Positions 5,029 to 50,508 of a stretch of DNA of 64,000 nucleotides are shown here, piece by piece. Origin of the DNA: a virus; IMG/VR virus record IMGVR_UViG_3300032782_000001, positions 180,404 through 244,403 of that record; one strand, written 5' to 3'. The notes beneath the pieces were generated by a model. That model did not search any database and was not told the DNA's origin. It worked only from the letters and a program-made list of their open reading frames with translations. Both the position numbers and the translations under genes were made by a program. How positions within the stretch are numbered: the stretch's first letter is position 1; each line of letters opens with the position of its first letter.

Positions 5029-5074
5029 GAATCCATTACCTTTTCTACGATTCCATCATGATCGGAACTGGAAT

Positions 5075-7434: not shown

Positions 7435-7443
7435 GATTGCGAT

Positions 7444-26332: not shown

Positions 26333-27253
26333 TCACTGGAATTTCGCCTTCCTACGGCGTTCTCTTTGTTTGATAGCACTCCTAATTTTCTGTTCTGAAT
26401 AACAAACCCCGCAAATTATATACGGATGTCCGCGTTTCTGGACCTGATGGCATTCATTGATAGGAACTAGGCCATGCTTTCTACAAAACCTTTCTTGCAA
26501 TAGCGCTCGTATGCGCCTCTTTTCTTCATTGATGGCTCGAATCTTAACTTTGGATTCAGTGGACTGTTTCCGTCCCGTATTGGATGATGCTATTCTTTCG
26601 ATAATATGTTGATCACGAGAACCGACGATCGCGCTAATTTTGGCGCAGTGGGCTTCACTCAGTTTCCTACCAAGAAGCGAAGATGCTATTTTCTTCTTGG
26701 TTTCGTATTTATGATGTTTACCGGAAAAAGTCCCATCACACCGAGATTTAACTTCTGGCCTCATCCGCGTTTCTTTAGAAGAATCGGAACGTTTAGAACG
26801 AGATTCAGAAGTTTGGAACGTGGACTTTCTTTTAAACCGGGCTTCAGCAGTCTGAGATAGTTGGTGAATATTTTTTAAATTTTCGAGAGCCTTCTCTCGG
26901 TATTCTATTCGATCCCACGGATTCTTGATCGGATGCGGAACATGAGATCCGCCTTTAACGAGATTGAAACCCTTAGCGGGGTTTCTCGTGTCGTAAAATT
27001 CAATTCGGTCCTCTTCTAAAAGATTAGCCTCTTCTAGAGTATTGCAAAATCCTAGAACTTCATGCGAGAAGGCTTCCTTGCCATACGCACGGATGGCATT
27101 CGCGAAGTGGGAAACGCCCTTCCCGACCTTCGTTCGGTTCGCCGTGTAGACGTGCTGATTCCAGCGCTGAAGAAGCGTCTTCTTCGTCAAACCGACGTAA
27201 CGGCGGCCAGTGGCAGCATGAATGTGGCAATAGACTGTCCAGCGGGATTCCAT
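26333..27253 (-). CDS. Free-standing GIY-YIG homing endonuclease (Seg/I-TevI-like) with NUMOD-type C-terminal DNA-binding repeats
   Basis: WTVYCHIHAATGRRYVGLT...RWNQH...YDTRNPAKGFNL matches the GIY-YIG catalytic core. C-terminal repeats of type GKHHKYETKKKIS and GRKLSEAHCAKIS resemble NUMOD3. Confidence 0.85.
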   Translation of the reverse strand: MESRWTVYCHIHAATGRRYVGLTKKTLLQRWNQHVYTANRTKVGKGVSHFANAIRAYGKEAFSHEVLGFCNTLEEANLLEEDRIEFYDTRNPAKGFNLVKGGSHVPHPIKNPWDRIEYREKALENLKNIHQLSQTAEARFKRKSTFQTSESRSKRSDSSKETRMRPEVKSRCDGTFSGKHHKYETKKKIASSLLGRKLSEAHCAKISAIVGSRDQHIIERIASSNTGRKQSTESKVKIRAINEEKRRIRALLQERFCRKHGLVPINECHQVQKRGHPYIICGVCYSEQKIRSAIKQRERRRKAKFQ

Positions 27254-27286: not shown

Positions 27287-28078
27287 CTAATAGAGAATCA
27301 CCGAAGTCTCCAAAGAAACGGAGTCAAACATGACTCCCCGAACAGTCGGTTTGGTGTTCATTAAGGCATAATTCGGGTCATTGAGAACAGGAATATAGCT
27401 GTCGGAAAATTGGGGCGGGAACGGAGGAGGAGAAATTGGGGGGACTGGTAATGGCGGTCCCACCAGGAAAGGCCTCGGATTAGGTGTTTGGGCCAGCTCA
27501 TACGGATCAGAAGTTATGACTCTTGATTCCAAAGAGTCAATATCGACTTCGTTGCCGGAATTTGCAGTTTGAAGGGCTGGAGACATGAAAACAAGCCCTT
27601 GAGAACCTGAGAGAAGACCCTCCTGCGATTCACCTGAAAATCGATTCAGGAAAATTTCACCAATAACCGCGCCGAATGGAGTCGGAGGATAATCAGGTCC
27701 TCCACGGAATGAATACGTCTGCGTGCTATCCGTACCATCAGTGGTGGAAGTAGATACTTCCACCACTGCCATGGCTTCGAGATGAACCAATGGGACTTGG
27801 ATATCGAACGCATATCCGTTATTGGGAGCATCATAAATAAAACTGGATCCCGTCACAAAATCGGGAGTAAATGTGACAGTGGACCCATCAAATACGAGCA
27901 AAAAGCTCAGATAAATCTTGGTCTTAGATAAATCGATGAGAGAACCTTGAACTCCGACCGTTAAGTGAACATGAAGATCGTTTGGGATGAAGTCTTCTGG
28001 TAGAGGAGTAAGATCCGTGAGATACGGGATTCCGCCTCCACCAACATTCTGACCTACATTTTGTCCGAATCCAGACAT
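27287..28078 (-). CDS. Hypothetical structural protein with Pro-rich C-terminus
   Basis: 263-aa ORF; GQNVGQNVGGGG at the N-terminus and PPLPVPPISPPPFPPQF near the C-terminus. Confidence 0.5.
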   Translation of the reverse strand: MSGFGQNVGQNVGGGGIPYLTDLTPLPEDFIPNDLHVHLTVGVQGSLIDLSKTKIYLSFLLVFDGSTVTFTPDFVTGSSFIYDAPNNGYAFDIQVPLVHLEAMAVVEVSTSTTDGTDSTQTYSFRGGPDYPPTPFGAVIGEIFLNRFSGESQEGLLSGSQGLVFMSPALQTANSGNEVDIDSLESRVITSDPYELAQTPNPRPFLVGPPLPVPPISPPPFPPQFSDSYIPVLNDPNYALMNTKPTVRGVMFDSVSLETSVILY

Positions 28079-28081
28079 AAT

Positions 28082-28372
28082 TTACGATACGTAATCTTCT
28101 TCTACTGTGGCGCCTGAAATGGCTGTACTACCGGATTTTGTTCCCGTATAATAGACTCCAGTAGGATCTGGAAGGTCAGTAACAACCCAAACTCTGTAAA
28201 TAATTGATGGTAATGCGTCTACGTCTAGCCAACGCATTTTGATCCTTCGAACGGGCCCTTGAGTGGATGGCTCTTGGAATGTGGCTGGAAAGGCATATGA
28301 AGTAACAACAGGGGCGTAATAACTAGCCTGAGCCACAGTGTACGTCCACCCTTGAGTAGTAAAATCAGCCAT
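28082..28372 (-). CDS. Small hypothetical structural protein
   Basis: 96-aa ORF tightly packed (3-nt gaps) between neighbouring genes. Confidence 0.45.
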   Translation of the reverse strand: MADFTTQGWTYTVAQASYYAPVVTSYAFPATFQEPSTQGPVRRIKMRWLDVDALPSIIYRVWVVTDLPDPTGVYYTGTKSGSTAISGATVEEDYVS

Positions 28373-28373
28373 A

Positions 28374-29312
28374 CTAAACCGCTACGGGAGTTCCGTCCCA
28401 TGGTAGATTGACGTCACTAATGACTATCCTGTCGCCTGTACTGAGATAGCTCAATAGCTGTCCAGACTGTTTCCGCATCCCGTGCCACATCATAACATAC
28501 CCCACGCCCTTGATCCCGATAGGTTCTGAGGTAGTTGTATTATGACCGTAGATAACGGGGCCAACCTCTTCGTCCATAGAATGAGGATTTATTCCAAGTA
28601 GATTAGGAAACATGAAATTTCCTGCACTAGGATTACCAACCCCTAATGGATTGCAAGCAGACCAAGCTTCTGCTGGAGTCCCTTTTCCAAACCAGGCACC
28701 ACCGCCTGAAGCACTTGATACGTTTCCAATTGAAAAACCGTTTGTACCTGGGACTGTCCAAACAAAGGGATCTGGGTCATTTGGAGACCCCGTATTGGCC
28801 ATGATTGCATCCAATACAATTCCTCCTCCTGGAGCGCTGCCGGGGTTCCCGTCTGATATAATAGCGAGGAAAAATCCATAAGGAGCTGCGTTATCAGCTC
28901 CCATATTTACATGATAACTATTATCGCTCAAGAATCCTGTGAATGTTCCACGAATATTCTGAGAATCTGTAGCCGTAGGGATGACAGTAGCACTAGGACT
29001 GCCGCCTGTATACCCAGCAGAATAACTATATGTGAGTGTGCTAACATTGGAAATTCCTGACATCTGTAAAAGCATTTCTCGAGTAACCCCGAGATAAGAA
29101 GGCATCTGGATGCGAAACCAAGCGTTGGCGTTACCAAGGCCTCCAGCTCCAGAAGATGCCGTTGTCAAAATATCACTGGAACTCGAGAACAGACTAAGTC
29201 CGTCCCCTGAAGATTTAACAGTCCATCCAGCGGTTTTGAGAAGCTCCTTCAAATTGAAAAGAGCTCCCGCTCCCGTTACAAGACCAATATTCTTCCGGAA
29301 TATGAACGACAT
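28374..29312 (-). CDS. Member A of a four-gene tandem paralogous family (~315 aa)
   Basis: Aligns with members B-D from the internal Met (MSFIFRKNIGLVTGAGALF...); the longer ORF start at 29345 would overlap member B. Shared motifs GWTVKSSGDG, AWFRIQ, AAPYGFF/W, terminal D[IV]NLPWxGxxP. Confidence 0.7.
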   Translation of the reverse strand: MSFIFRKNIGLVTGAGALFNLKELLKTAGWTVKSSGDGLSLFSSSSDILTTASSGAGGLGNANAWFRIQMPSYLGVTREMLLQMSGISNVSTLTYSYSAGYTGGSPSATVIPTATDSQNIRGTFTGFLSDNSYHVNMGADNAAPYGFFLAIISDGNPGSAPGGGIVLDAIMANTGSPNDPDPFVWTVPGTNGFSIGNVSSASGGGAWFGKGTPAEAWSACNPLGVGNPSAGNFMFPNLLGINPHSMDEEVGPVIYGHNTTTSEPIGIKGVGYVMMWHGMRKQSGQLLSYLSTGDRIVISDVNLPWDGTPVAV

Positions 29313-29317
29313 ATTGC

Positions 29318-30265
29318 CTAGAGAAGGGGGTAACTGCCGTTCCACGGCAAGTTTATATCACCAAAACAAATCCTGTCTCGAGCAGTATTGATTCCGATAG
29401 CTGTTCCTGTAGCAAACCTGGAACTGTTGAACTTGAAAATTGAACTCATTCCTTTCCATCCGTTAGGGGCGGCTTGGCTTCCTGAAGTGGTTCGACCCCA
29501 GAACAGCGGATAAGAAAATTTCTTATTGAAATAAGTCAACAAAACTTCTGCTTGTGCAGGAATTAATGGAGTGCTAGAAGCCCCATATTGCATGGCTTGA
29601 ATTTGTTGGAATGTGGCTCCAGTTTGCCCGTAGTTGTACCAGGCTCTCTGAGTGTTACTTTGAGTAGTTAATGAAGTAAATGGAGTACCCGACGTACTGG
29701 CAATGAGAACCACAGGATCCGCATCGCTGACAGGATATGTGCCCGTCACCATCGGGTCCATGACGAGAACTCCGTCTAAAGTGGTTCCATCAATCGAATT
29801 AGGTCTAAATCCGACACTCCAAAAACCATAAGGAGCAGCTGCATCAGCAGCTGCATTCCATCTATATGTTGCATCAGTGCTATTCATCCAAGATACGAAT
29901 GTACCTGAAGTACCGATCAAAAATTGTTCATCGGTAGCGGTCGGCATTACAGTAGCACTTGGACTACCGCCAGTAAACTTTGCCTGCGCCGAGTATTTTA
30001 CTCTCCATTGCCCAATGGATCCGTTTGTCTGCATGCAGAATTCCCGAGTACCTCCCGGGTCTTGAATTCGGAACCATGAATTGGCATTTGCCATACCACC
30101 AGAGCCAGTTGTAGCACTAGTAATTTGGTCTCCTGATGAGTTAAAAGTAGTTCCATCCCCAGACGACTTCACGATCCAACCTACGAGCTTTAGCAGTGCT
30201 TTGAACCTGAATACAAGTTGCCAGCTCGTGGTCACCGCGGTGTTAGAATCATAGGAGAAAGCCAT
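29318..30265 (-). CDS. Member B of the tandem paralogous family
   Basis: MAFSYD...GWIVKSSGDG...SWFRIQ...AAPYGFW...GDINLPWNGSYP. Confidence 0.7.
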   Translation of the reverse strand: MAFSYDSNTAVTTSWQLVFRFKALLKLVGWIVKSSGDGTTFNSSGDQITSATTGSGGMANANSWFRIQDPGGTREFCMQTNGSIGQWRVKYSAQAKFTGGSPSATVMPTATDEQFLIGTSGTFVSWMNSTDATYRWNAAADAAAPYGFWSVGFRPNSIDGTTLDGVLVMDPMVTGTYPVSDADPVVLIASTSGTPFTSLTTQSNTQRAWYNYGQTGATFQQIQAMQYGASSTPLIPAQAEVLLTYFNKKFSYPLFWGRTTSGSQAAPNGWKGMSSIFKFNSSRFATGTAIGINTARDRICFGDINLPWNGSYPLL

Positions 30266-30267
30266 GA

Positions 30268-31227
30268 CTAAATCGTTGGAGTGGACCCATTCCAGGGAAG
30301 ATTAACGTCTCGATACACGATTCTATCCTTAGCACCAGGAGAAGAGATAGAAAGTGTGTCGCCTGTGGTCCTAGATGAGCCATTCCATTTCATGAAGGAA
30401 CACATCCCTTTAAAACCTCCAGGCCAACGAGCTTCTCCAGAGATAACTTGTCCAGGAGAACCGACAGGAATATCAAAGACGTCATCGTTCCCGTTGTGAG
30501 GATTGGGCCCGACGTTATTAGGAATGGTGGAAGATCCATTGTAGAAAGAAAAACACCAAGTTGGGACCCCAGAGGTAAAAGCGGAATTAAAACGCTCTCC
30601 TGTAAGTCCTTTGCGGAAATAAGCAGCAAGACCGTTTCCGCCACCCGCAAGATCGCTTCCAGCGGAAAAAGTGGAAGTGACAATCGAAATATAGAAAACA
30701 TACGGATCTGCATCAGACGGGTCAGTTTGATTCAACGGAAACATGCAAATGCACCCGTTCGGATTTCCTCCGCCGATAGCGAACTGACTAGCCCAAAATC
30801 CATAGGGAGCAGCATCATCAGCAGCTGCATTCCATCGATACGTGCTATTGCCAGGGAAAATGCTGAACCCATTAGATAGGCTAATGCTGTCAGTTGCCGT
30901 AGCAGGCACGGAAGCAGAACCACCAGAGAAATGAGCAGAATATGAGTATTTGATAACCCAAGAAGTGTCGTTACTACGCTCAAACATGAGCTGCCGATTG
31001 ACCCCATTCATGGTCGGCATCTCAATCACGAACCAAGCAGTTCCGTTCCCGAGCCCACCCGCTCCAGTGTTACCAGAAGTTATGACGTCACCGGAAGAAC
31101 TGAAAGCACTGAGACTGTCCCCGGATGATCTGACAACCCATCCGGCGGCTACCAACAGAGTCTTCAGCTTGAAGACAGCCTGAGGCCCCGTAATGGCTGC
31201 GTTGTTGACGTCATAATGGAATGCCAT
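30268..31227 (-). CDS. Member C of the tandem paralogous family
   Basis: MAFHYD...GWVVRSSGDS...AWFVIE...AAPYGFW...RDVNLPWNGSTP. Confidence 0.7.
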   Translation of the reverse strand: MAFHYDVNNAAITGPQAVFKLKTLLVAAGWVVRSSGDSLSAFSSSGDVITSGNTGAGGLGNGTAWFVIEMPTMNGVNRQLMFERSNDTSWVIKYSYSAHFSGGSASVPATATDSISLSNGFSIFPGNSTYRWNAAADDAAPYGFWASQFAIGGGNPNGCICMFPLNQTDPSDADPYVFYISIVTSTFSAGSDLAGGGNGLAAYFRKGLTGERFNSAFTSGVPTWCFSFYNGSSTIPNNVGPNPHNGNDDVFDIPVGSPGQVISGEARWPGGFKGMCSFMKWNGSSRTTGDTLSISSPGAKDRIVYRDVNLPWNGSTPTI

Positions 31228-31233
31228 AATTCC

Positions 31234-32163
31234 TCAGGTCAGGATTTTGCTGCCATTCCAAGGCAAAGCAATGTCACCAACCGTCACAGTATCTCGTGTC
31301 GTAGAAACTGAAAGAAGAGTGGGAGTAACATAAGCCTGTCCAACCATTTTCATTAGACTGGAAACTCCTTTCCAACCGACAGGGGCCGTTTTTCCAGTAT
31401 CTCTTGCGTAGAACACGGGAAACATCACTTCATTGAATGAATGAGAATGATTACCGGCTCCTCCCGGGAACAGAATCGGTGATGACCCTAGAGCCACTCT
31501 CATCCAGGGAATGTTAACAAATCCTTCCCCCGCCAATCCCTTCTTCAAATACCCAAGTGGTGAACCAGGAGTGCCGACGGAAAAAGCACTGCTGCCGACA
31601 AAAATAAACACCATCGGATCGTTATCGGCCGCAGGATAAGATCCTGCGAGCAGAGGGTCCATGACAAGAGAACAAGTTATGGACGAATTGAACTGACCGC
31701 CAAAGGTGTAGGCAAACATGTAAAAACCATATGGAGCAGCATTGTCACACGCGATCTGGATTCGATAAGTATTATCAGTAGTGAAAAGAGTAGTGGCATT
31801 TAACAGAGTTTGACTATCAGTTGCAGTCCCAGGTGTCGTGGAATTTGGTGAACCGCCGGTAAATCCTGCTGAAAATGAATACTTAGAAGTCCAAACAGGA
31901 TTGGAAGAACCTCTTTGAAATATGAGTTCACGAGAACCTGCACCGGCAGGTGATTGCATTCGAACCCAAGCACTTGTATTTGCGAATCCATTGGCGCCTG
32001 AATTCCCGGAGGTAATAATATCACCTGAACTAGAGAAAGCACTCAACCCGTCTCCGGATGACTGCGTAGTCCATCCTGCAGCTATGAGCGCTTGCTTGAA
32101 GCGGTACATAGCTTGAGACCCCGTCAGGGGTAGAGGATAGTTGATGTCAAATACGAGTGCCAT
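31234..32163 (-). CDS. Member D of the tandem paralogous family
   Basis: MALVFD...GWTTQSSGDG...AWVRMQ...AAPYGFY...GDIALPWNGS. Confidence 0.7.
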   Translation of the reverse strand: MALVFDINYPLPLTGSQAMYRFKQALIAAGWTTQSSGDGLSAFSSSGDIITSGNSGANGFANTSAWVRMQSPAGAGSRELIFQRGSSNPVWTSKYSFSAGFTGGSPNSTTPGTATDSQTLLNATTLFTTDNTYRIQIACDNAAPYGFYMFAYTFGGQFNSSITCSLVMDPLLAGSYPAADNDPMVFIFVGSSAFSVGTPGSPLGYLKKGLAGEGFVNIPWMRVALGSSPILFPGGAGNHSHSFNEVMFPVFYARDTGKTAPVGWKGVSSLMKMVGQAYVTPTLLSVSTTRDTVTVGDIALPWNGSKILT

Positions 32164-33488
32164 TAGCTGTAAAGAACCTCAAGCTGCGCGAGCTTGCACG
32201 TGCAACCATCTCCAGCGCCCGCAGGATTGGGGGTGAAGACTTGAAGTTGGACCTCGTAAGTTCTCAAAGCGTTTTTAATATTCCCAGCAGCACCGCCTAC
32301 GGTGAGAGTCCCGGAAATAAGACGAGAAGGTGTCGTGGATGCCACAGACAACGCCGTCCCGGTAACATCTTCTGCGTCGTCTACGTTAAATAATTTCACC
32401 TGGGCAGTAACGCCAGGGGTTCCTTCCAACACCGCTCGGAACTTGATTGTCCTCGTGAATCCTGAAGATCCAGCTCCAGCGGCAATTACGGAAGGATCGA
32501 AAACAATGCAACCAATACCTTTATAAGTATTGGAGCCTGTGCCGGAATTAGACTGAGACCCTGTGACACCTGGGAAAGTGAAAATTGCAGGGACAGTAGC
32601 CAGGGAAGAAGGAGTCCATTGTGCTCCGTCCCAAAGAACCACATTGCCGGTTGATGGAGCCGCAGAATTAAAATTCCTACCTTGAATTTTTACAACGGTG
32701 TTAGACCCTATAGTCCCGGTTACATCTCCAGAAAGAGTCAAATTCAAAGTAGTGGGGGCCCATTTGGAACCATCCCATTCCAAAACTTGACTGGAGGTAG
32801 GAGCTGTCGAATCGACCGCCCTACCTTGAAGCTTGATAACAGTTGCACTAGCAATAGTCCCGGAAAGGTCTCCTCCTACTGCAGGATTGGTTGGAGTCCA
32901 AGCCGAACCATTCCACTCCAGGATATCTCCTGAAGACGGAGAACTTGCGCTTATTGGGTGGGATTGTAATCCCACTACCACTGCATCGTTGAGAGGCCCG
33001 GAAAGATCCCCACCAGCGCCTGCCGAAGTATTTAAGACGACATCCCAAATGTCTTCAATAACGTAAAGCCACGCATCCAGTTCTGTCATGGCTCCACGGG
33101 AGCCCGTTTCAGATCCTTCAGTATAAGCAGGATGACGGCGGGGAAGCGTAGCAGTAGCTGCAATGACCGGATCGCCGGGGTTCCTGGCGTAGAACCATAG
33201 TTCTGAAATTTTGTTGAGACCTACTCCACCATCAGCAATAAACCGGACTTTATACGTACCCTTGAAAGTAGGAGTGATGGTAACAGCAGGAAGCGTCAAA
33301 GGTGGAACTAAATTATCCCCAGATTCTATTAAACTGTGATCGACAGGACGACTAATTAACTGCCATTCATAAATACCGAAAGCAGACGTCAGAGAAAAGG
33401 TCACGGGGGTCCCCGTAACCACATCGTAGTTCGGGACTCCGGTGGTGACCGACAGACCCTGAGTTATGACGATGACCGGGCCTGGCAT
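32163..33488 (-). CDS. Tail fibre protein with three GGDLSG...W.P shaft repeats and a C-terminal domain shared with the collagen-like fibre
   Basis: Repeats GGDLSGPLNDAVVVGLQ...GDILEWNGSAWTP (x3). The C-terminal ~120 aa (…YEVQLQVFTP…CTCKLAQLEVLYS) are paralogous to the C-terminus of 43394-46147 (…YEVQLRCYP…[13 protein letters not shown]). Confidence 0.7.
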   Translation of the reverse strand: MPGPVIVITQGLSVTTGVPNYDVVTGTPVTFSLTSAFGIYEWQLISRPVDHSLIESGDNLVPPLTLPAVTITPTFKGTYKVRFIADGGVGLNKISELWFYARNPGDPVIAATATLPRRHPAYTEGSETGSRGAMTELDAWLYVIEDIWDVVLNTSAGAGGDLSGPLNDAVVVGLQSHPISASSPSSGDILEWNGSAWTPTNPAVGGDLSGTIASATVIKLQGRAVDSTAPTSSQVLEWDGSKWAPTTLNLTLSGDVTGTIGSNTVVKIQGRNFNSAAPSTGNVVLWDGAQWTPSSLATVPAIFTFPGVTGSQSNSGTGSNTYKGIGCIVFDPSVIAAGAGSSGFTRTIKFRAVLEGTPGVTAQVKLFNVDDAEDVTGTALSVASTTPSRLISGTLTVGGAAGNIKNALRTYEVQLQVFTPNPAGAGDGCTCKLAQLEVLYS

Positions 33489-33521: not shown

Positions 33522-36500
33522 TCAGTTGAGAATAATAAGTTGTAGAGAATTGCGTTTGAGATCCCGCACCAATCGATAAGTGTGGAAGTTTCCATCTTCC
33601 CAGTCAAAAGGACGACGGAACAAAGTTTTGCCTGAATTTAGATCTTGAACTTTGACGAAACGAAATGAACCAAGCTTTTCAAAGCCGATACCAGCTGTAA
33701 AGCCGAAAGGTCCGGCAATTCCGGAAAAACCAACATAGATTCCTGAGTCCAAATTAGTGGATGGAGAGAATACGGAATTGATTCGAATGGAAAGAGTCAT
33801 TTCAAACTTGACGGAAATAGAATCAGGGAGCCCCGAGCGGCTCTCATATGCCGTTCTCGTAGTTCCAATAGTTCCGTAACGCATGAAGTCTATTGGACCT
33901 GCACTCATCATGGTGACGGACACAGAAGAGGGATCGTCTGACAAAATGAACCAGGGCGTGTATTGAGGAACGTCTAGTCCCAACAAGAAAATGGCTGAAC
34001 CACTAAGAATCATTACTTTGGACGAGGGACCAGACGTCGGGCTAATAAGCCTAATGCGTCCATCGATCTCAGATGAGGCAAGAGATGAAGGGAGTCCCGG
34101 CGCAGAGTTGATTCGTGAAACAACAGCCCCCGAAGTCGTATCACCCGCTTGGAAAGTCACGAGAACAGGATCCGCTTGATCTACCTGAATCGTGATGGTT
34201 TCTCCTCCTACGATATTGAACGGCGGGGTCAGATTCCCAACAAGCTGAGCATTCTCAGGAAGAGCCGCACCAGTGAAAGTAAGCGTCTGATCTTGTTGCG
34301 CTTTAAATCCATCAATATGCCACGTTTCATCATCCGAGAACGGTGAAACGTGACCAGGTTCCCCCGTCGGAGTCCGGAAGAATTTCATTCCTTCATACAA
34401 AACACGTGATGGCGGATCTAGTCTAATGAACACGGTTCCGCCGTGAACACCAGGCTGGACTCTATGAAGTTCATACTTTGTCCTAATCTCATTAAGTAAA
34501 TCCACCGCCGTAATCAAATCCACAGCATCGGGGGATGTGACTACATTCACAGTGTCATCTGTTACGTGCACGTCATCTGCCGTCCGATGAATGTTAAATT
34601 TGAGTTTAAGCTGATTGGTGGTAAGAATAAGACTGGCAAGATCAGAAGGTGGGGGCAAGAACACATGATCTTGAATGTCTTCCGTCACGTGGGTTCGAGG
34701 TCGAACCAAATGCATGTTGAATTGATTCAACAGATCAGCAGCAAGGGTCAAAGCAGTAACGGTCGGTCCATCGATAGAGCTGACTGACAGCACGGGGGAG
34801 AAGCCAAAATGATAAAGGTTTCCAACTCTATGAAGGTTATACTCTGACTTGAGCTCATTGAGAAGTGTAATCGCGGTATTCAAGTCAAATGCATCTGGAG
34901 ATACAACAGCATATCTAATGTCAAGATCTTCATGCAGTTCCACTTGGGACTCGATGAGTGTCCTGTGCCGATTGAATTTCAGCTTCATATCATTGATCAA
35001 TCCAATAATGGATGGCAAATCCAAAACTGGTTGACCTGCGACAATTCGAGTGAAGGAACTTGGAGAAGAATCCGGAGTCGCATAAGGAGCAGATGCAGTA
35101 AAGAATCCGGCACCTACAGCAATAACGACCCTGAACGATCCAGCATTTGGACCCGTGAGAAATTCGATAGAGTTCCCGATTCCCAAAGGAATGGTCGGAT
35201 TTTCGACAGTAACCAGATCAGCTTGGACCGATCCATACCCCAGACCCGGAATCCGTAGAATCGTTTCAGCATCGAGAATGTCAGAGAAGAAATGGAATGA
35301 TGTGGCCAATACGTGGGCACTCATTTGAACTCGAACTTCGTCAGCGAGAATCGCCAGACTAGTAATATCGGAAGCGTCAGCTGCCGTCACGATATTTGTG
35401 ACATCAGGCGTGATGTGGAGCGGGCCGCCGTTCCTATGACCTGTGTACTGAACAATCAAGTCATCTGCCAGTACGACAGCTGAATCAATATCAGTCGCAT
35501 CGGCGGATGTAACTATGTCTTGGTTGTCATCGAAATCATGAATACCAGGTTGAGTCCTGTGGGCGTTAAATTTAGCTTTCAGTTCATTGAGTAGTGCGAT
35601 GGCCGACGACAGATCTAAAGCTGCTGGAAGAATCGAAGCGTTTACGAGATCATTGGATACATGCAAACCTGGCTGCACGCGATGTGAATTATACTTAGAT
35701 TGAACATCATTTGCAATAGAAATAACATCAGAAATAGCATCGGAAACTGTTGTAGCTGATGGTTCAGTAACAACGTCATCAATATCATCTTCAAGGTCAG
35801 AAATGAATCCTTTAGTATTAACAAGATCTACGGACGGAATATTTTCTACGGGAGTAACGACACGAGTTAGCCCTCCCCTAGACTCAAGATTTTGAGTCTT
35901 CGGGACTGGCGGAGTGCCTTCGCCGAGAATAGTAAAAGCAGCAACATCCGCATCGCTCATGAAATCGTCCAGAGGAGTGCCACCAGAATAAATCCGGAAG
36001 CCAAAATGTTGATGAGTCTTGGCAGTAAAAAGATGATCGGGAGACGCTACAGCATTTGCCCGATTAGTAACTTGACCGGGAGAAATAAGTCGATCGCTCA
36101 AAGTGAGTTTGCCGATGGAATACTTAATGAAATCCCATCGAGTCCGGACGATCTCTTGCGGATTGAAACTACCGAAGGCTACGGCTTGATGGCCGCTTGT
36201 GATTCCTTTCAAAAAACTTGTGGAGGATGATGGAAGTCGCAAAGAGTCGTAATTTGTGCTGATTACAGGAACTTGTCCCCCATCCACATAAACGGAAACG
36301 GCAGACACGGGGTCACGAACAATTCGATAAGTGTGGAGCGCTGTCCAATCAACTTGATATAAATAGTATGAGTCGAGAATCGTAGGATCTCCACCCATGA
36401 AAATTCCCACGAATCTACGACTAGAAGCGCTGGGATCAGAAATCTTACTATCACGGAAAACTGTCACAGTATTCCAATCCACCACAGACATGGCAGAACG

Positions 36501-39500
36501 CATGTCACTTCCGTTTACTGGAGCACTTCCGGATCCAAACGACAAAGAAGGACCTGCCAATCCAGTATTTAATCCAGAATAAGTCGGTGACGGTTGTCCC
36601 GATAACGGACTAAGAAGAGATCCGTCTGCGAGGACAAAAATGGAATCGGCGTTCTTGGACGTGTAGACATCATAAGAGTGAGTTTGCCCGTCTCCCCAGT
36701 TGAAAGCGTACTGAGCTTTCACGTCCAAAGAACCGGTAGACGTATTGAAAGACACAAGATTTAGGTATTTATTGTTGGTTATCGGATCAATAGCAGTCTG
36801 CAGTTCTAAAGACTTACCGGAAGGGCCTTCATCAACGGATACTAAAGCACCACAGAAATGATATGTATTGTACGGGGGCGCCGCCGGGATACTATCACCA
36901 GGCACGAATGAAAGAACTGCGAATCTGCAGTCCATCTTCCAATCCACAGATGAATTGAATGCTTGATTTGTAACTACAGGATCAGCAAGATTAAATACAA
37001 CATAATCAGAAACGTCTGAATCGGTCAGACGCATAGTCCGACCAAGCATTTCAGAAGACTGGGTACCGGCTCTAGTCCAAACTGGGCTATCGAGGTCAGG
37101 AAGATTCTCGCCGAACCAACTTACTCTTGGTTCCGGATTCGAGTCCTTGCCTCGATAAACTCCAGGACTGAATCCAAGTTTGGACAGCGAACTCCCGGAA
37201 ATGATCTGAATACTGGATTGAATACCAACATCTGAGCTAGTGAGGGTGACTCGGCCTCCTGCTGCAGAAGCTAAAGTGAAACCAGCTGCAGTATTGATAG
37301 TCGAAGCCACATTCACGGCAGTGGAATCAGATGGTGAGAAATTCACAGTAAAGGGAGGAGCTCCATCCAGACTAATGACGATGGAGTCACCTGAAACCAT
37401 CGGAAACGGTTCGGTAGACGATCCTGTGATAGTAGCCGGAGATGGCGAAAATTGAAGGAAACAGAATTGAACTGAAAAATTTTCGTCGTCGAGGAAAACC
37501 CCCGCAGCTCGATTATCCAGGCTATGGGTCCAAAAATCAATCGAAGCAGCGAATTCGAAACTACAGGCAGTGTTTACAGAAAGAATAGGTTCAAGTCGTA
37601 GACATCCTCTATACGCACCAGAGCTCAAGCCTAGAGCTTGAACACTAGCAGAAGGAGCTGACGCCGTGGAATCAATCGTCAAAATTCCTGAAGCTACTCG
37701 TTCCACGCCTCCTTGGCCAACAGTGATCCAAGGAGCTTGAGGATCCAATTCCGGAAGAGTATCAGCTTCGTAATCTACTCTCTTATTATCCCCGATTAAG
37801 TTTGCATCCACAGGGCTCATGTTGGAACGAACGAAAGCCCAATTGCTAGTTGATGTTGAATTTCTACCAATTGACCCGAAGAAAATTTGTTGTAGTGGGT
37901 CGAATTGTCCATCCAAATCGCTAATGGATGGGAGTTCCGTAACCGACGCTGTAGTAATAGGTGAAAGCCCACCGCTCAAGAAGAGTGAAATATCTCCGTC
38001 AGAATCACGGAAAATACGGTAAGTGGTAAGAACAGTCCAATCGACGCTAGCAGCATTCCAACTTTCTTGGAATTCCGCGAATCCTCGATTAGTAAGAATC
38101 CCGGCTTGGCGAACTTGGTTGACAACGTTAGTTACGTCATTGACGAAGTGAATTCCAGGTTGTGTTTCATGTGCATTGAGTTTAGTCCTAATTTCATTCA
38201 CAAGAGTAAGAGACGTGGGCAGGTCATCCGCATCCGGAGACACAATGGGGTCAATCGTGTCTGGGATAATATGAACACCACTGGCTCCACCTTTTGCCAT
38301 GTGGAGGTTCATTTTAGATTTCAGGTCATTCAATAAGATGACCAAAGATACTAGATCTGTCGCATCAACGATAACGACTGTATCATCAGGATCGTTGGGG
38401 ATATGAGATCCTAGATTCGTAAGGTGTGAATTAAATTTAGCCTTCGCATCATTGACCATCACAATAGCTGACGATAGATTAATAGCGTCAGTCAGAATGA
38501 ATCCAATAACAGCCACTTTCTGGCCATCAGAAACTCCGAAAGAAACCCCTGTGAAAACTCCATCATTGACAGATTCTTCTACGAACATACGGAATGCTGC
38601 CGACAAAATAGCCGGTGCCCGCATGTCAATAGTATGAGTAAAGAACGGAGGTTGACTCGACGGTCCAGTCTGAATATTGGAATCGACGATGGTCAGTTGA
38701 TTCCCTCCGGGAGCGAGAATAAACGTACCGTCACCTTCAAGAGTCCAAGGGTTATGGGCATTTTGAGGGAGTGTGATCGGGTCGTATCGAATGGTAGTTT
38801 CGAAGAAAGTTTGGAATAGGACAGGATATGCAAGACGATTGGTAGGAACGTTCAAAAGAAGGGTGCTGGGATCATTCAGAACAGCGGAATACCTCCTTTC
38901 AAGGCCTTTATACTTCCAGCCAACTTTTTGCGGCTGATAGGGGGACGTGAAATCAGGACTGGTGACTGGGTCAATAAGAAAAGACCGAGATCGATACCTG
39001 TGTTCTGGGAATCCAGCATACCCGCGATTCCCAGCCTGATTCAGATTGAATTCTGGAGAATTTAGTCTGAGTAACTTGGCCGGCGGATTATTCAAAAATG
39101 CATAGTTGATCGAGACTATATCTGTGGGGCTCGGTTTATTTGTAAGAACAACTGCCCCGAGAAGTCCGAATACTGCATCAACCGCAGCAGGAGACCCATT
39201 CACAATTACGTCTACGTCCGCAGAATCATCTGCAACCATTCCAGGCCGAGGATCTTTGAGAATCCAAGAAAAAGGTCCAGTAAGGGGGCCCGGATATAGA
39301 CCCGTAATTGGTTTTACTTCTGAAATCGTGACCCGATTAACGGAATCCCCGACTTGATGAGATTTAAGGTTTTGCCTATGAGATTCAAATTTCCTACGTA
39401 AATCATTGACAAGAATAACCGCACTAGCCAATGACGTTGCCGCAGGCGATAGAATCACATCATCCGTATCCGCAACTTTGTGAACAGGCGGAACACCTGA

Positions 39501-40010
39501 TACGTCCACTACGTGTAAATTAAATTGGGTACGAATATCATTTAACATGATGATAGCCGATGCCAGATCAACAGCAATCGGGCTAGTTACTATGTTCACG
39601 GTATCATCGGTCCCGTGGACTCCGATGATAGTAGTCCCCTGAGTAATTTTCTGAATCCTGTGAGAGTTATACCGAGCTTTGAGCTCGTTGGTTAAACCCA
39701 CGACAAGATTAGTAGTGATCCCAACATCAGAAATATCAAAACTAGCGTTTTCAAGTTGAAGAAGTTGATTATTGATGGCCTTCTTAATGTAGAAGACCCC
39801 GTCGTTGCGGCCTCCGGCACTTCCCGTGATTGCAATTTGCTGACCCACATTGAGGGAATTGAAACTGCCAGTCGGAATTGAAACCTGCGTTTCCGACATA
39901 ATTCGGAGGTTACTTCCGGCCAATAAATCAGCTGGCCTCTTGACAATAGGGCCTCGATTGGTAAAGAGAGTCCTATCGAGAACAGAGCTGAGACCAGTAA
40001 AGGTGATCAT
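33522..40010 (-). CDS. Giant repeat protein (2162 aa) built from at least 15 copies of a 41-45 aa helix-loop repeat with two conserved His
   Basis: Recurrent units such as DAVDLITAVDLLNEIRTKYELHRVQPGVHGG, ALDLSSAIALLNELKAKFNAHRTQPGIHDFDD and DATDLVSLVILLNDLKSKMNLHMAKGGASGVHII. The ATGA start overlaps the stop of the upstream 832-aa gene. Confidence 0.8.
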   Translation of the reverse strand: MITFTGLSSVLDRTLFTNRGPIVKRPADLLAGSNLRIMSETQVSIPTGSFNSLNVGQQIAITGSAGGRNDGVFYIKKAINNQLLQLENASFDISDVGITTNLVVGLTNELKARYNSHRIQKITQGTTIIGVHGTDDTVNIVTSPIAVDLASAIIMLNDIRTQFNLHVVDVSGVPPVHKVADTDDVILSPAATSLASAVILVNDLRRKFESHRQNLKSHQVGDSVNRVTISEVKPITGLYPGPLTGPFSWILKDPRPGMVADDSADVDVIVNGSPAAVDAVFGLLGAVVLTNKPSPTDIVSINYAFLNNPPAKLLRLNSPEFNLNQAGNRGYAGFPEHRYRSRSFLIDPVTSPDFTSPYQPQKVGWKYKGLERRYSAVLNDPSTLLLNVPTNRLAYPVLFQTFFETTIRYDPITLPQNAHNPWTLEGDGTFILAPGGNQLTIVDSNIQTGPSSQPPFFTHTIDMRAPAILSAAFRMFVEESVNDGVFTGVSFGVSDGQKVAVIGFILTDAINLSSAIVMVNDAKAKFNSHLTNLGSHIPNDPDDTVVIVDATDLVSLVILLNDLKSKMNLHMAKGGASGVHIIPDTIDPIVSPDADDLPTSLTLVNEIRTKLNAHETQPGIHFVNDVTNVVNQVRQAGILTNRGFAEFQESWNAASVDWTVLTTYRIFRDSDGDISLFLSGGLSPITTASVTELPSISDLDGQFDPLQQIFFGSIGRNSTSTSNWAFVRSNMSPVDANLIGDNKRVDYEADTLPELDPQAPWITVGQGGVERVASGILTIDSTASAPSASVQALGLSSGAYRGCLRLEPILSVNTACSFEFAASIDFWTHSLDNRAAGVFLDDENFSVQFCFLQFSPSPATITGSSTEPFPMVSGDSIVISLDGAPPFTVNFSPSDSTAVNVASTINTAAGFTLASAAGGRVTLTSSDVGIQSSIQIISGSSLSKLGFSPGVYRGKDSNPEPRVSWFGENLPDLDSPVWTRAGTQSSEMLGRTMRLTDSDVSDYVVFNLADPVVTNQAFNSSVDWKMDCRFAVLSFVPGDSIPAAPPYNTYHFCGALVSVDEGPSGKSLELQTAIDPITNNKYLNLVSFNTSTGSLDVKAQYAFNWGDGQTHSYDVYTSKNADSIFVLADGSLLSPLSGQPSPTYSGLNTGLAGPSLSFGSGSAPVNGSDMRSAMSVVDWNTVTVFRDSKISDPSASSRRFVGIFMGGDPTILDSYYLYQVDWTALHTYRIVRDPVSAVSVYVDGGQVPVISTNYDSLRLPSSSTSFLKGITSGHQAVAFGSFNPQEIVRTRWDFIKYSIGKLTLSDRLISPGQVTNRANAVASPDHLFTAKTHQHFGFRIYSGGTPLDDFMSDADVAAFTILGEGTPPVPKTQNLESRGGLTRVVTPVENIPSVDLVNTKGFISDLEDDIDDVVTEPSATTVSDAISDVISIANDVQSKYNSHRVQPGLHVSNDLVNASILPAALDLSSAIALLNELKAKFNAHRTQPGIHDFDDNQDIVTSADATDIDSAVVLADDLIVQYTGHRNGGPLHITPDVTNIVTAADASDITSLAILADEVRVQMSAHVLATSFHFFSDILDAETILRIPGLGYGSVQADLVTVENPTIPLGIGNSIEFLTGPNAGSFRVVIAVGAGFFTASAPYATPDSSPSSFTRIVAGQPVLDLPSIIGLINDMKLKFNRHRTLIESQVELHEDLDIRYAVVSPDAFDLNTAITLLNELKSEYNLHRVGNLYHFGFSPVLSVSSIDGPTVTALTLAADLLNQFNMHLVRPRTHVTEDIQDHVFLPPPSDLASLILTTNQLKLKFNIHRTADDVHVTDDTVNVVTSPDAVDLITAVDLLNEIRTKYELHRVQPGVHGGTVFIRLDPPSRVLYEGMKFFRTPTGEPGHVSPFSDDETWHIDGFKAQQDQTLTFTGAALPENAQLVGNLTPPFNIVGGETITIQVDQADPVLVTFQAGDTTSGAVVSRINSAPGLPSSLASSEIDGRIRLISPTSGPSSKVMILSGSAIFLLGLDVPQYTPWFILSDDPSSVSVTMMSAGPIDFMRYGTIGTTRTAYESRSGLPDSISVKFEMTLSIRINSVFSPSTNLDSGIYVGFSGIAGPFGFTAGIGFEKLGSFRFVKVQDLNSGKTLFRRPFDWEDGNFHTYRLVRDLKRNSLQLIILN

Positions 40011-42508: not shown

Positions 42509-43366
42509 TCAACTAGTCCTGGACCGACGTGCTAGTTTCTTCCTTGCAAAAACAACTAAAGCACGTGCCTTTCGGCATACTATGCATTCGTATCGAACCT
42601 TTAAGCCAATTTTCTTATGGCATTCTCCGATCGGGATTGGACCGTGGACCTTGCAGTTGAAATGAGTCCGTTCTAATGATAACCTCTTGAGAGTCGCACC
42701 ACCGTTCTTGATCGCGGCATCTGACGGACGACGACCTTTCATGGCTGCAGAGATTTTAGCTCTCGCTTCCGTGGATAGCTTTCTGCCTGACGACGCCTGC
42801 CGGATTTTTTCTTTATGGTCATTGGAGAGCTTCTTCCCCCGTTGCACTTCGGAAATTTTCCGCTTAGACTCGTCGGAATGGTGTTTTCCTTTGAAAGAAG
42901 AACCGAGAGCCACAATCTCCGGACGAGAATGAACTTCCTTGGAAATTTTGGACATCTTCTGACGATATTCAGGCGTCCATGATGCCTTACTAACTGCAGA
43001 CGCCTTCTCTCGGAAGCCCGGACGGTTCCAGTAATCAGTTTTAACTGAATGTGGGGTATGAAGTCCTCCCTGCATAAGATTGAAACCCTTCTCGGAATTC
43101 CTTGTGTCGTAGAATTCAATCCAACTCTCTTCAGCTAGATTCGCAACTCCGAGCTCAGAGCAAACTTCAAGCACCTCGTGCAAAAAAGCATCCTTCCCAT
43201 ATTTCCGAATTGCACTCCAAAAATAACGACATCCTTTGCCGAGTTTGGACTTCGCATTATGAAGATGTTGATTCCATCGCTTCATCATTGTGAGCTTCGT
43301 CAGCCCAATATAGCGACGTCCAGATTCAGTATGCGTATGACAGTAAATAGTCCAGCGAGTCCCCAT
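42509..43366 (-). CDS. Second free-standing GIY-YIG homing endonuclease, paralogue of 26333-27253
   Basis: WTIYCHTHTESGRRYIGLT...RWNQH...YDTRNSEKGFNL; about 60% identity to the first HEG over the catalytic domain; NUMOD-like C-terminal repeats. Confidence 0.85.
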   Translation of the reverse strand: MGTRWTIYCHTHTESGRRYIGLTKLTMMKRWNQHLHNAKSKLGKGCRYFWSAIRKYGKDAFLHEVLEVCSELGVANLAEESWIEFYDTRNSEKGFNLMQGGLHTPHSVKTDYWNRPGFREKASAVSKASWTPEYRQKMSKISKEVHSRPEIVALGSSFKGKHHSDESKRKISEVQRGKKLSNDHKEKIRQASSGRKLSTEARAKISAAMKGRRPSDAAIKNGGATLKRLSLERTHFNCKVHGPIPIGECHKKIGLKVRYECIVCRKARALVVFARKKLARRSRTS

Positions 43367-43393: not shown

Positions 43394-46147
43394 TCATGCC
43401 CAGGTAAATACGATTTGTGCCAGTTTGCAGGTAGCCTGATCCGAAGGCCCAGGACCAGTAGGACCAGAAGGTCCCGTCGGATAGCATCTAAGCTGAACTT
43501 CGTAGAGTTGCATCTGGTTATCCAAGTCGGCCGGCACGGTCAGTATCTGTCGAACGAGTGTGGGAGTGGTATTGATCAAGTTCTTCGTAGTTCCCGAAAT
43601 ACCAGTACCGACGCCAAGGTTATAGAGACGAATCTCTGCATACATGCTTGGCGTGGACTCAATAACAGCTTGCCATTCGATTTGTCGACCACTGACTTGA
43701 GTTTTGGTTGGATCTACTGCGATGGCTCCAATACCAACGAAGCCAGTTTGACCAGTTTGTTGAGCTCCAACCACCCCCGGGAAAACAACAGAAATTGGGA
43801 ATGGTCCAGATCCGCCCCCACCACCTCCACCAGGACCAGTTGCACCTTGAGGACCCGTCGCTCCGGTAGCTCCGGCGGGTCCGGTAGCTCCGGCGGGTCC
43901 GGTAGCTCCCGTTACGCCTGGAGATCCTTGCGAACCAATAGCTCCTTGCGGTCCAGTGGCTCCTGTAACTCCTGGAAGGCCGATCGGACCTGTGGATCCC
44001 TGAGGTCCGGTAGGTCCCGCAGGTCCAATTGCACCTTGAGGACCAGTCGCCCCCGTCAACCCCGGAGATCCTTGAGGAGCTCCGGCGGGTCCGGTAGCTC
44101 CAGTGACCCCGTCCATGCCGGCAGGACCCGTAGCCCCCTGAGGACCCGTAGCCCCCGGAGCTCCAGTTACTCCGTCCGCACCTTGTGGTCCAGTGGCTCC
44201 AGTGACGCCGGGTGACCCTTGAGGAGCTCCCGCAGGTCCAGTTACTCCAGTGACCCCAGGTGAGCCCTGAACGCCCTGCGACCCAGTAGGGCCAACCGCA
44301 CCCGTCGCCCCAGTTGCACCAGCATTTCCAATGGGTCCGGTTGCACCTTGTGGACCGGTTGCACCTTGTGGACCGGTTGGACCAGTTACTCCAGTTAAAC
44401 CTGGAGACCCTTGCGGACCTGTTGCTCCTTGTGGCCCCGTAGATCCTTGTGGCCCCGTAGATCCTTGTGGTCCAGTCGCCCCAGTTGCTCCTTGGGGACC
44501 AGTTGCTCCTTGGGGACCAAGGGGCCCTGTAACGCCATCAATTCCCGTTGCACCTTGAAGGCCCGTTGCACCTTGTGGACCGGTTACTCCCTGCGCTCCG
44601 GTTGTACCGACAGGTCCAGTTGGGCCAGTTGCTCCAGTGGCCCCTTGTGGACCGGTTGCACCTTGTGGACCGGTTGTACCAATAGGTCCAGTCGGGCCAG
44701 TTGCTCCAGTGACTCCGTCTACACCGGTGGCGCCTTGTGGACCAGTTACACCATCAGCTCCTGTTGAGCCCTGCGGCCCTGTGGGGCCAGTAGCCCCCGT
44801 TGCACCTGGGGGCCCACCAAAGGGACCCGTAGGCCCTTGAGGACCAGTGGAACCGGTAACACCTTGTGGGCCTGCAGGACCTGTCGGACCAGTAGTTCCC
44901 GTAAAACCTGGAGAACCTTGCGGCCCGATTGAACCAGTAGGTCCTTGGGGACCTGTGGGGCCAGTTGCACCTTGCGGGCCAGTTGGTCCAATTGGACCAC
45001 CAGAAGGTCCAGTCGGGCCAGTAGCACCAACGGCACCAACCAAACCAATCGCAGAAATTTCGCCTGTTAAGAAATTGACAGTTCCGGAGTTAGCAAGCCA
45101 TTGAACCTTTACGGTATAAGTTCCAGCTGACAAGGCCGTGGACGTAAACGTCCCGGCCACAATGCTCATGGAAGTGGATTCTCCATCCTCTTGGAGAGAT
45201 GGACCGTTTTGGGAGTCAATAACGAGTCGAAAAACGGCAGAACTTGAAAGAACATCAGGCTGCCACTGGAGAGAGAACGACGCCGAAATAGGCGCCGTAC
45301 TTCCAATAGTGACGCTCGTAGACATACCCGGGATGTCTACGAATCCGACACTCGTAGTCTGAGCAAATGTCGGAGTGCTAATATATCCGAAGGGAATTGG
45401 AGCGGGGGCTGGTGCCGGACCCTGAATACCCGTAGCGCCTTGTAAACCTGTAGCTCCTTGTGGTCCAGTGACTCCCGGAGAACCTTGAGGCCCAGTCGGC
45501 CCCGTGGCACCAGTCGCTCCAACTGGCCCAGCAGCACCTGTGACTCCAGCGGGTCCAGTGACTCCCGGAGAACCTTGAGGCCCAGTCGTTCCAGGACTAC
45601 CTTGGGGACCTGTGGTTCCTGCAATACCAGGAGAACCTTGAGTTCCTTGGGATCCCGTAGCTCCTCTCGGTCCCGTTGGTCCAGTCGCCCCCGTCGATCC
45701 GACAGGTCCGGTGGCTCCAGTTGGTCCCTGAGGACCTCCAAAAGGCCCCGTGGGACCCTGGGCACCAGTAGGACCCACAGGGCCCGTGACACCAGTAGGA
45801 CCCGCAGGTCCCGCAGGTCCTATGGGACCCGTAGAACCAGCAGGACCGGTAATTCCGGTGATGTCTGTTTTAAGTTGATCAATGGCCCCTGCAGTCAAAA
45901 TATGAGTGACTGTCGCGCCGAAAGCGTGGGTCGCTGCGGAAGTTCCCTCTTGACCACGGAGAACTGTAAATAAATTCCCGGCGACTCCAGTGACGATCAA
46001 AATCTCATCGTCAATCCGAATACGGAATTGCGGGAGAGGAGGAAACAACGCAGCGCTGGCGACAGTAACATTCGTCGCCACGGGGCTAATGCCGCCGAGC
46101 TGGTTGATAGTCGTCTGTGCGCCGTTGGAGAATTTCTCGGTGGTCAC
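43394..46147 (-). CDS. Collagen-like tail fibre (917 aa): N-terminal anchor, two long G-X-Y triple-helix blocks separated by an Ig-like insert, C-terminal domain shared with the 441-aa fibre
   Basis: About 550 aa of [10 protein letters not shown]-type triplets; a G7 run before the C-terminal domain; C-terminal homology to 32163-33488. Confidence 0.85.
43800..45880. repeat. Highly repetitive coding DNA of the collagen blocks, including perfect 18-bp tandem duplications and ~30-bp dispersed repeats
   Basis: tccggtagctccggcggg x2.5 at 43862-43909; gcaccttgtggaccggtt x2 at 44343-44378 and again near 44650-44685; ccttgtggccccgtagat x2 at 44427-44462; caggtccagttgggccagttgctccagtg at 44611 and 44684. 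Confidence 0.85.
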
Positions 46148-50000: not shown

Positions 50001-50508
50001 TCGTATCTTTGTTGATACGAAGATACCCCGATCCTGTTCCGCCTTCTCCTGTAGAAGCATACACATTATATCCAGTAATGGACGAAGAAGAAGAAACATC
50101 AGACCAAGTAATATCAACTGAGCTAGCACGACGTTTAAGAACGATCCCCGTTGGAGGAGTCAACAAGTTTTTCAGGTCGGACTCAGCAACGACCGTAGCA
50201 CTGATAGTTGCTGCGGGACTAACAGCGCCTGTGATATCAACTGCCCTGAGTCTAATGACATTCAGACCCTTGTCCAGTTTGAGACCGTCTGGAAAACTGG
50301 ACAAGTTAGGAACCGTGAAATTCGGGAGCGCAAGATCGACCAAAGAAGGATCCGACACAAACCCAGCGTCGTTGACATCAATTTGAACGTCAATGACATT
50401 CGGACCCACGGAACCAGTAAAAACCAGCCCGAACAAATTCGTAGTGATGGTTAGGGATGAGGTTGTCCCGGAACCGTCAAAATAATTCAGCTGCGGCGTG
50501 GCCGTCAT
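47056..50508 (-). CDS. Large baseplate/fibre-associated protein (1150 aa) with at least one fibronectin-III-like module
   Basis: VDITWSDVSSSSSITGYNVYASTGEGG is FN3-like; the remainder is beta-rich with T/S/N/V bias. Confidence 0.7.
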   Translation of the reverse strand: MTATPQLNYFDGSGTTSSLTITTNLFGLVFTGSVGPNVIDVQIDVNDAGFVSDPSLVDLALPNFTVPNLSSFPDGLKLDKGLNVIRLRAVDITGAVSPAATISATVVAESDLKNLLTPPTGIVLKRRASSVDITWSDVSSSSSITGYNVYASTGEGGTGSGYLRINKDTIPFTSPTTTVVEEIPSSSVSYDLTDSAPQITPFSGNDVRIVSQILDPVTNEVITQTSDNRYSLLGQPNFRLTVSVSALEETNFFTFNHNRNNGIVNNTLNSDTFAAVASEDPLFYVITSVFFNKSTGLLQESRFSQEISGNPLALDATVRGIQIRQQDAVVNNYIREISTVQPTLSLIPGSTVREVHIEPFANEMQKAYFLMDFVHRAKSFSALLQIDDPGLTGTSIPVSNSQYKQALKAALSLSTDAATQGLIDSAFDSLAKNFGIPRLGSRPSVVNQTFYTTTKPTRDLIVAQNAIVSSSTVSTAPRYRAKGAATLTAANAQSFYNQDTRRYEIKVQMFADTPGSAGNIPAGSIDTVVSGASGFNTINEVAADFGRDVQSNLELAESAQNALSSLDTGTEGGYEENSISVPGVLETRVIKSGDPFMMRDYDEVRKKHIGGKVDIYVKGTLERTTTETFAFQFEIAKNIRFDVIDVTTLTFRARDSRLTPSNPIVEMLFNPSQGLGLRNHSDLPTASYDLTGVTLVDYRTIRLSQSIPQPQTLLDDFVEGDYRFRSNNKFIPSIQPILRVSSVTGEVSGALDSVLGFTIFKIQDPLLEGESTIAKDFITINQVGNVPSGNSLQVNDEQHVLIGEFQEPLDSVGINSFTLVVYSKDRTIQYNGPDNANPDYLVVGGSQTTPIKIIRTTLSNIASGATISVDYQKDENFSVTYVVNDVLQQLQAKIQTMRHVTADVVVKQALENPISVEATVQLLPNANQATVDSAIRTSFTILTDSKGVGGSIHQSDVTSVIDDTTGVDFVVQPFSRLSLQDGAVRIRDEILPESVALPSLNAFANAVYLLTQALPFNTTDGGGANNIHHGVFKDDLIMKMADSLESVGNAVNQSWIIGQNGAVIQGYSDDATLLPVVFVASAIPAERVRRTANRVVVSLDAGATPPDVPGNHAFSATYVVSGDKGVQDINTSQIEFLTPGDITLTYRPAS

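Follow-up and report, generated by a model that had tools for sequence, protein, structure and literature searches.

The window analysed here, a stretch of 64,000 nucleotides from a virus (positions 180,404 to 244,403 of the IMG/VR record IMGVR_UViG_3300032782_000001), carries four adjacent, diverged copies of one gene, which we call A to D. The question raised by this locus is whether the four products serve as alternative host-binding tips or as distinct parts of a single structure. Matches to Baseplate_J, to a collagen-like fibre and to a tail protein indicate that the window represents the tail region of an uncultured, very large phage (its contig is 436,316 bp long), and the Baseplate_J match suggests that the tail is probably contractile. 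On the evidence of gene order, predicted fold and genomic context set out below, we consider it rather probable that A to D are four non-interchangeable subunits of a hetero-oligomeric adhesion arm or platform on the phage tail, resembling the arms of phage JBD30.

Four diverged paralogues in a conserved order

The four genes lie head to tail on the minus strand, within a long run of minus-strand genes, in the order A (31234..32163; 309 amino acids), B (30268..31227; 319 amino acids), C (29318..30265; 315 amino acids) and D (28374..29312; 312 amino acids). The mechanically assigned open reading frame (ORF) of D starts at a GTG codon at 29345; counted from its ATG (MSFIF), the 312-residue form is identical to the database protein P0001. 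Spacers measure 6 nucleotides between A and B, 2 between B and C and 5 between C and D. The region from 27287 to 33488 also holds three genes that do not belong to the family, encoding proteins of 441, 96 and 263 amino acids; the stop codon of the first of these shares one nucleotide with the ATG of A, and the 96-amino-acid gene begins one nucleotide past D. This tight packing, with overlaps or spacers of no more than 6 nucleotides both in the window and in the related locus L001, fits co-expression of the genes.

A preliminary description of the locus had proposed that A to D are tandem paralogues in which a conserved scaffold is interrupted by variable segments, and both parts of this proposal were borne out. 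MAFFT aligned the four proteins end to end, with 57 invariant columns and 39 to 41% identity to A. Pairwise identity among A to D was 35 to 40%, and BLASTP comparisons with the paralogous positions in a related locus gave expectation values (E) of 1e-45 to 1e-64, far beyond chance. Counted in B numbering, identity among the four was 50% over residues 1-115, 37% over 116-178, 19% over 179-270 and 41% over 271-319. Because protein identity between orthologues does not exceed 59%, synonymous sites are saturated, and we used amino acid identity per segment in place of the ratio of nonsynonymous to synonymous substitution rates. The scaffold motifs listed in the preliminary description are present, with small deviations in two members (MALVFD, GWTTQSSGDG and AWVRMQ in A; MSFIFR and LPWDGTP in D). 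A to D had no match in Pfam or PHROGs, including no match to a fibre family, in agreement with the earlier remark that the family could not be named.

Four adjacent paralogues followed by a gene for a protein of about 96 to 101 amino acids were also found in three other contigs, L001 (326 kb; 316, 321, 311, 314 and 96 amino acids), L022 (93 kb; 308, 310, 316, 313 and 101 amino acids) and L023 (308, 311, 314, 328 and 100 amino acids). Protein A is 52 to 59% identical to the first-gene products of these three arrays, compared with 39 to 40% to its own neighbours. Likewise, B is 48 to 52% identical to the proteins in second position, C 40 to 46% to those in third position and D 44 to 48% to those in fourth position, so that positional counterparts share 40 to 59% identity, against 35 to 40% among the paralogues of the window. 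The A proteins form the best-conserved group of positional orthologues, while C is the fastest-evolving position, with 26% identity within the group over segment 179-270. A neighbour-joining tree resolved four position clades, with bootstrap values of 182 (A), 188 (B), 52 (C) and 199 (D) out of 200, and protein tables revealed further contigs with A and B types together with a C or D type. Since each gene is closest to the genes in the same position elsewhere, the duplications are older than the split between these phages, in which the order has been preserved. An old duplication with a retained order points to four non-redundant subunits and not to a recently diversified repertoire. The earlier suggestion of a diversified set of alternative tips did not survive this comparison, and a recently diversified tip repertoire was rejected. 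What suggests that A to D may form one heteromer is this conserved positional orthology, a signal read from sequence.

Copy number differs among lineages: some carry one, two or three copies, and arrays of two to four are present in many related contigs. The tree indicates independent tandem duplications in L002 and L006, and a tandem pair also occurs in JBD30. Such recurrent tandem duplication suggests that the fold tends generally to work as a heteromer.

The same data can be read differently, with A to D as independent receptor-binding tips, each a homo-oligomer directed at a different receptor and the set as a whole widening the host range. The hypervariability of segment 179-270 between paralogues would suit such tips, as would the insertion of Kelch propellers in relatives (see below) and the range of one to four copies across lineages, so that single members can evidently function alone. 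We nevertheless regard this explanation as unlikely. The four types are old and keep a fixed order across diverged phages, having been neither recently expanded nor shuffled; their closest structural relatives are obligate heterodimers; and all four have a strongly conserved N-terminal third, which would be expected of a shared assembly interface.

A fold shared with the JBD30 pilus-binding arms

We modelled B with AlphaFold2 from an alignment of 66 sequences. The model had a mean predicted local distance difference test score (pLDDT) of 92.5 and a predicted template modelling score of 0.92, and confidence dropped in variable loops only, for example at residues 261-270 (pLDDT 56). According to this model, A to D are globular, compact alpha/beta proteins that lack shaft repeats, and the predicted fold of the family is common to the "tail-fibre-forming" proteins gp47 and gp48 of Pseudomonas phage JBD30 over most of the chain. 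In JBD30, gp47 and gp48 resemble each other in fold and pair as heterodimers, three of which make up each of the three bent "tail fibres", or arms, that are attached to the upper baseplate (PMC11445458). These arms embrace the type IV pilus (PMC11445458; PDB 8RK3/8RK5). This was the sole strong structural match, and the earlier idea that A to D might be adhesin or fibre subunits fits it. Common ancestry with gp47 and gp48 is likely, with homology at the sequence level unproven. A profile or fold match to tail tube or sheath proteins, the identity that the preliminary description had set against its own proposal, was looked for and was not found.

Like A to D, the two JBD30 proteins are encoded by adjacent paralogous genes (047 and 048), two in JBD30 and four in the window. 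The two systems differ in several respects. JBD30 is a 37-kb siphophage, whereas the phage of the window is huge (436-kb contig) and has a Baseplate_J wedge, and there is no significant full-length sequence similarity between the JBD30 proteins and the family in the window. The gp47 family is present in 354 GenBank phage records and the window family in none. In addition, the module in the window has extra co-conserved partners, namely a protein carrying a distinct C-terminal domain and a 96-amino-acid protein. Large insertions also occupy different sites, after the N-terminal helix in relatives of gp47 and at profile positions of about 86, 110 and 160 in the window family.

Adjacent pairs of proteins with similar folds, proposed to be JBD30-type fibres, have been described in Pseudomonas phage Lydia (gp67 and gp68; PMC11946847) and in a Mu-like prophage of Vibrio harveyi (GP41 and GP42; PMC12482185). 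Both belong to small siphophages and were linked to JBD30 by structure prediction; neither is a four-gene array or a member of the window's sequence family. These pairs indicate that the heteromeric arm design is widespread. A heteromeric arm of paralogous globular subunits has already been solved in one phage and predicted a few times in small siphophages; new here, among other things, is its fixed four-subunit form, accompanied by two co-conserved partner genes.

Distant, single-copy members of the family (E of about 1e-36 to 1e-46 against the family profile) were found on contigs of 28-47 kb, inside a myophage baseplate block. The block begins with sheath (DUF3383), tube, tape measure, a Dit-like protein, a Pam3 gp18 plug and an E217 gp41 hub, and continues with a 206-amino-acid protein (PF18352, phage N-terminal domain), the family member, a 127-amino-acid protein, a gp25-like wedge and Baseplate_J. 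In the window, the array sits between fibre-like genes, downstream of the gene for a Baseplate_J/gp6-like wedge protein of 1150 amino acids (47056-50508). These locations bear on the possibility that A to D are virion proteins situated off the baseplate, either as capsid or tail-shaft decoration or as head-fibre anchors to which the fibres with the C-terminal domain are attached. An 832-amino-acid neighbour in the window would agree with this, as it has a weak head-fibre match in PHROGs (E 5e-4) and an immunoglobulin-like domain, and so would the position of the module close to the major capsid protein gene in L023 and away from baseplate genes in several huge-phage contigs. Against it stand the single-copy relatives inside the baseplate gene block, the attachment of JBD30 gp47 and gp48 to the baseplate, and the Baseplate_J and tail-fibre genes surrounding the array in the window, and we judge a location off the baseplate to be quite improbable.

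Several results weigh against a JBD30-like tail arm. Foldseek searches against PDB did not recover the relationship to gp47 and gp48, and searches against BFVD returned weak matches (template modelling scores of 0.43-0.52) to cultured-phage proteins of about 310-390 amino acids that are uncharacterised or annotated as "virion structural". Profile comparison by hhalign with the gp48 family gave a probability of 19% (E 1.2e-3), or of 57% (E 1.1e-4) with an enlarged profile, and comparison with the gp47 family was not significant (E 0.018-0.067); a control comparison of gp47 with gp48 gave a probability of 98%. The match to the gp48 family was confined to the N-terminal 57 or so columns, which align in register as a helix followed by GW ... 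DG ... G.N..AW. As noted above, the C orthologue group has weak bootstrap support (52/200). In JBD30 the pair is flanked by the tape measure and Dit genes, a position that the array in the window does not share. Finally, the module is not beside recognisable baseplate genes in L001, L002 and L022, where its neighbours are metabolic or unknown, and the L023 module is located some 4 kb downstream of a major capsid gene.

The fold also bears on two explanations that would place A to D outside the structural parts of the virion or give them a catalytic function. If A to D served as helpers outside the virion, for instance as chaperones of the neighbouring fibres or scaffolds for their assembly, their linkage to fibre-like genes and a small gene downstream would match what is seen for fibre chaperones. 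However, proteins of this fold have been resolved in the mature virion of JBD30, and four paralogues of about 315 amino acids with Kelch-bearing variants would be atypical for chaperones, which makes such a function very unlikely. An enzymatic role, for instance as cell wall hydrolases, is suggested by the tentative placement of gp47 in the nitrilase superfamily by the JBD30 authors (PMC11445458) and by the presence in the window family of an invariant lysine (Lys273) and several aspartates that are nearly invariant. The family has no conserved cysteine and no match to an enzyme fold, and we consider this role extremely improbable. A nitrilase-type enzyme in particular was rejected, as neither a Cys-Glu-Lys triad nor a nitrilase-type fold was found.

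If A to D are subunits of a hetero-oligomeric arm, they would be co-expressed and would co-assemble into a bead-like arm or platform at the tail tip or the periphery of the baseplate, in a manner analogous to the gp47-gp48 heterodimers of JBD30 that are stacked into three pilus-binding arms. The conserved N-terminal 115 or so residues and the C-terminal 50 or so would provide the core and the subunit contacts. Contact with the host would fall to surfaces turned outward, namely the hypervariable region (about residues 179-270) and the loops at profile positions of about 86, 110 and 160. The protein with the C-terminal domain would be a partner, either as a fibre docking on the complex or as a knob carried by it, and the 96-amino-acid protein would be a second partner, acting as a small linker or assembly factor. 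The data show the paralogy, the shared fold, the positional orthology and order, the conservation of the module, the insertions and the baseplate setting of distant members; co-assembly, stoichiometry, location on the virion and receptor binding of A to D are what we infer in this scheme. If it is correct, the globular-subunit arm, solved only in the small siphophage JBD30, would be a widespread adsorption device, with a fixed set of four subunits as its expanded form in huge phages, and the variable loops and Kelch insertions would be candidate host-range determinants in uncultured phages.

A more specific version, which we put forward tentatively and with some doubt, is that A to D form a hetero-tetrameric block of a non-trimeric, bead-like fibre or arm that would be widespread in huge contractile-tailed phages, in which the fast-evolving C would act as a swappable receptor cassette and knob-fibres would dock through their C-terminal domain. 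Kelch-propeller-bearing versions would then replace the third subunit in some lineages. Such an arm, if real, would represent a second general architecture for phage adsorption beside trimeric fibres and spikes.

Family distribution, partner genes and inserted domains

To place A to D among known proteins, we searched sequence collections with individual members and with the family profile. The 66-sequence profile had no match among PDB sequences even at E <= 10. Among 50,697 GenBank phage records, no match was obtained with the 6.2-kb region (megablast) or with tblastn queries comprising B, a distant member and a hand-completed consensus of the A2 alignment. When 185,579 species-representative genomes of bacteria and archaea were scanned from motif seeds, with a sensitivity limited to the two motifs used, no relative was found either. 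The family profile found 227 metagenomic proteins in a word-indexed search, and an exhaustive profile search at E <= 1e-3 yielded 2,183 cluster representatives (1,136 of them at E <= 1e-30); as these stand for clusters at 50% identity, 2,183 is a lower bound on the size of the family. Nearly all members are 300-345 amino acids long and match over their full length, and none has a name or an assigned domain. Many are encoded on phage contigs of 200-450 kb; besides those on the contig of the window, other members come from contigs of 210-448 kb. The gp47/gp48 fold thus occurs in a distinct, much larger sequence family, confined to uncultured and mostly huge phages, which is described here for the first time, and a previously unnamed family with neither a domain nor a cultured-phage relative now has a fold and a probable structural role.

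Two further genes are conserved together with the array, giving a unit with the order C-terminal-domain carrier, two to four paralogues, and a protein of about 96 amino acids. In the window, the carrier is the 441-amino-acid gene upstream of A (32163..33488, minus strand), which has weak tail-fibre matches in PHROGs. It encodes three fibre-type repeats of about 42 residues (residues 162-293) and a C-terminal domain (residues 299 or so to 441; nucleotides 32163-32594), and the array does lie directly downstream of a fibre-like gene, in line with the first description. The C-terminal domain shares 50% identity with the C-terminal end of the 592-amino-acid protein encoded upstream of the L001 array, and a domain of this type, about 125-140 residues long, also ends the array-upstream gene products in L004, L007, L022, L023, L024, L042 and L052. 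The N-terminal parts of these carriers vary, ranging from fibre-type repeats or collagen-like sequence to almost no sequence at all; the carriers in L022 and L023 are 172-amino-acid proteins with little beyond the domain itself.

The window contains a second carrier, a collagen-like fibre of 917 amino acids (43394..46147, minus strand) with strong tail-fibre and collagen-like matches in PHROGs. Its C-terminal domain (residues 787-917; nucleotides 43394-43789; domain-profile score 176.9) is 36% identical to that of the 441-amino-acid protein. A local peak in G+C content (0.60 at 44-46 kb) is explained by the approximately 185 G-X-Y triplets of this fibre. Just upstream of the module in L023, a 104-amino-acid ORF (9149-9463) shares 62% identity with the N-terminal 105 residues of a neighbouring 978-amino-acid collagen-like protein (6185-9121), which suggests a duplicated or split fibre anchor domain.

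The 96-amino-acid gene (28082..28372, minus strand) directly follows D and is conserved with the array: homologues directly follow the arrays in L001 (53% identity), L002, L004, L007, L022, L023, L027, L031 and L037. The protein has no match in Pfam, PHROGs or PDB, and a single-sequence AlphaFold model was unusable (pLDDT 37.5); it is possibly a small partner or an assembly factor. The 263-amino-acid gene (27287..28078, minus strand), which starts 3 nucleotides past the 96-amino-acid gene, is not conserved with the module. Its product is proline-rich around residues 200-225, with 15 prolines among the last 63 residues, and has no Pfam or PHROG match and no homologue in any related locus. Taken as a set, the carrier, A-B-C-D and the gene for a protein of about 96 amino acids provide a recognisable marker for annotating the tail regions of huge phages.

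Some members of the family contain large inserted domains. In three three-gene arrays, the third gene encodes a protein of 1026-1111 amino acids with Kelch beta-propeller insertions of 300-650 residues (L008, 11072-14302; L009, 12056-15391; L040, 6757-9837). The Kelch modules are inserted at profile positions of about 86 and 160 and represent rare large domains nested in this fold; these variants of the family are new. L048 has an insertion of about 230 amino acids at profile position 110 or so. Relatives of JBD30 gp47 (P0331, P0322, P0362 and P0351) carry PA14 or F5/8-type-C (carbohydrate-binding) insertions after the N-terminal helix, and we found no mention of them in the JBD30 paper (PMC11445458). 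The occurrence of domain insertions in both families indicates that both are scaffolds presenting ligand-binding domains, which fits an adhesive role at the tail tip.

Other features of the window and of related loci

Elsewhere in the window, a 1552-amino-acid protein has a tail-protein match. Comparison of the neighbours of 96, 219, 441, 882 and 2162 amino acids with PDB sequences returned nothing useful. Sigma-70-like promoters were not in excess (8, compared with 9.7 +/- 3.8 in shuffled sequences). Terminator-like sites numbered 16, compared with 8.0 +/- 3.3 in shuffled sequences; they lay mostly inside coding sequence, and none defined a transcription unit.

Immediately upstream of the 441-amino-acid gene, an ORF of 2162 amino acids (33522-40010, minus strand) contains at least 11 copies of a unit of about 40-45 residues. 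The unit has the motif [LIVM]xN[DE][LIV][KR]xK[FY]NxH, with a second His a few residues further on, and copies are clustered at residues 106-200, 518-603, 1432-1481, 1671-1716 and 1838. The protein has no Pfam or PDB-sequence match, and the units form an unnamed repeat family in a giant and presumably structural protein.

Two genes for GIY-YIG homing endonucleases (26333-27253 and 42509-43366, both minus strand), whose products are 43% identical to each other, lie inside the structural gene block of the window. GIY-YIG or HNH genes were also present near the module in L022.

In L002, a huge-phage contig of 247.7 kb, genes for PrkA, an intein-containing SpoVR and DUF444 (about 3859-8344 and 13590-14750) surround a two-copy module. 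PrkA, SpoVR and DUF444 are encoded by a conserved operon in bacteria. Together with Cpn60 and a Clp protease, also encoded on this contig, they make up a gene set that is unusual for a phage. In L004, a 298-kb phage contig, a gene for an IS605-type OrfB/TnpB protein (Cas12f-like; 578-1780, minus strand) is located about 8 kb from the array.

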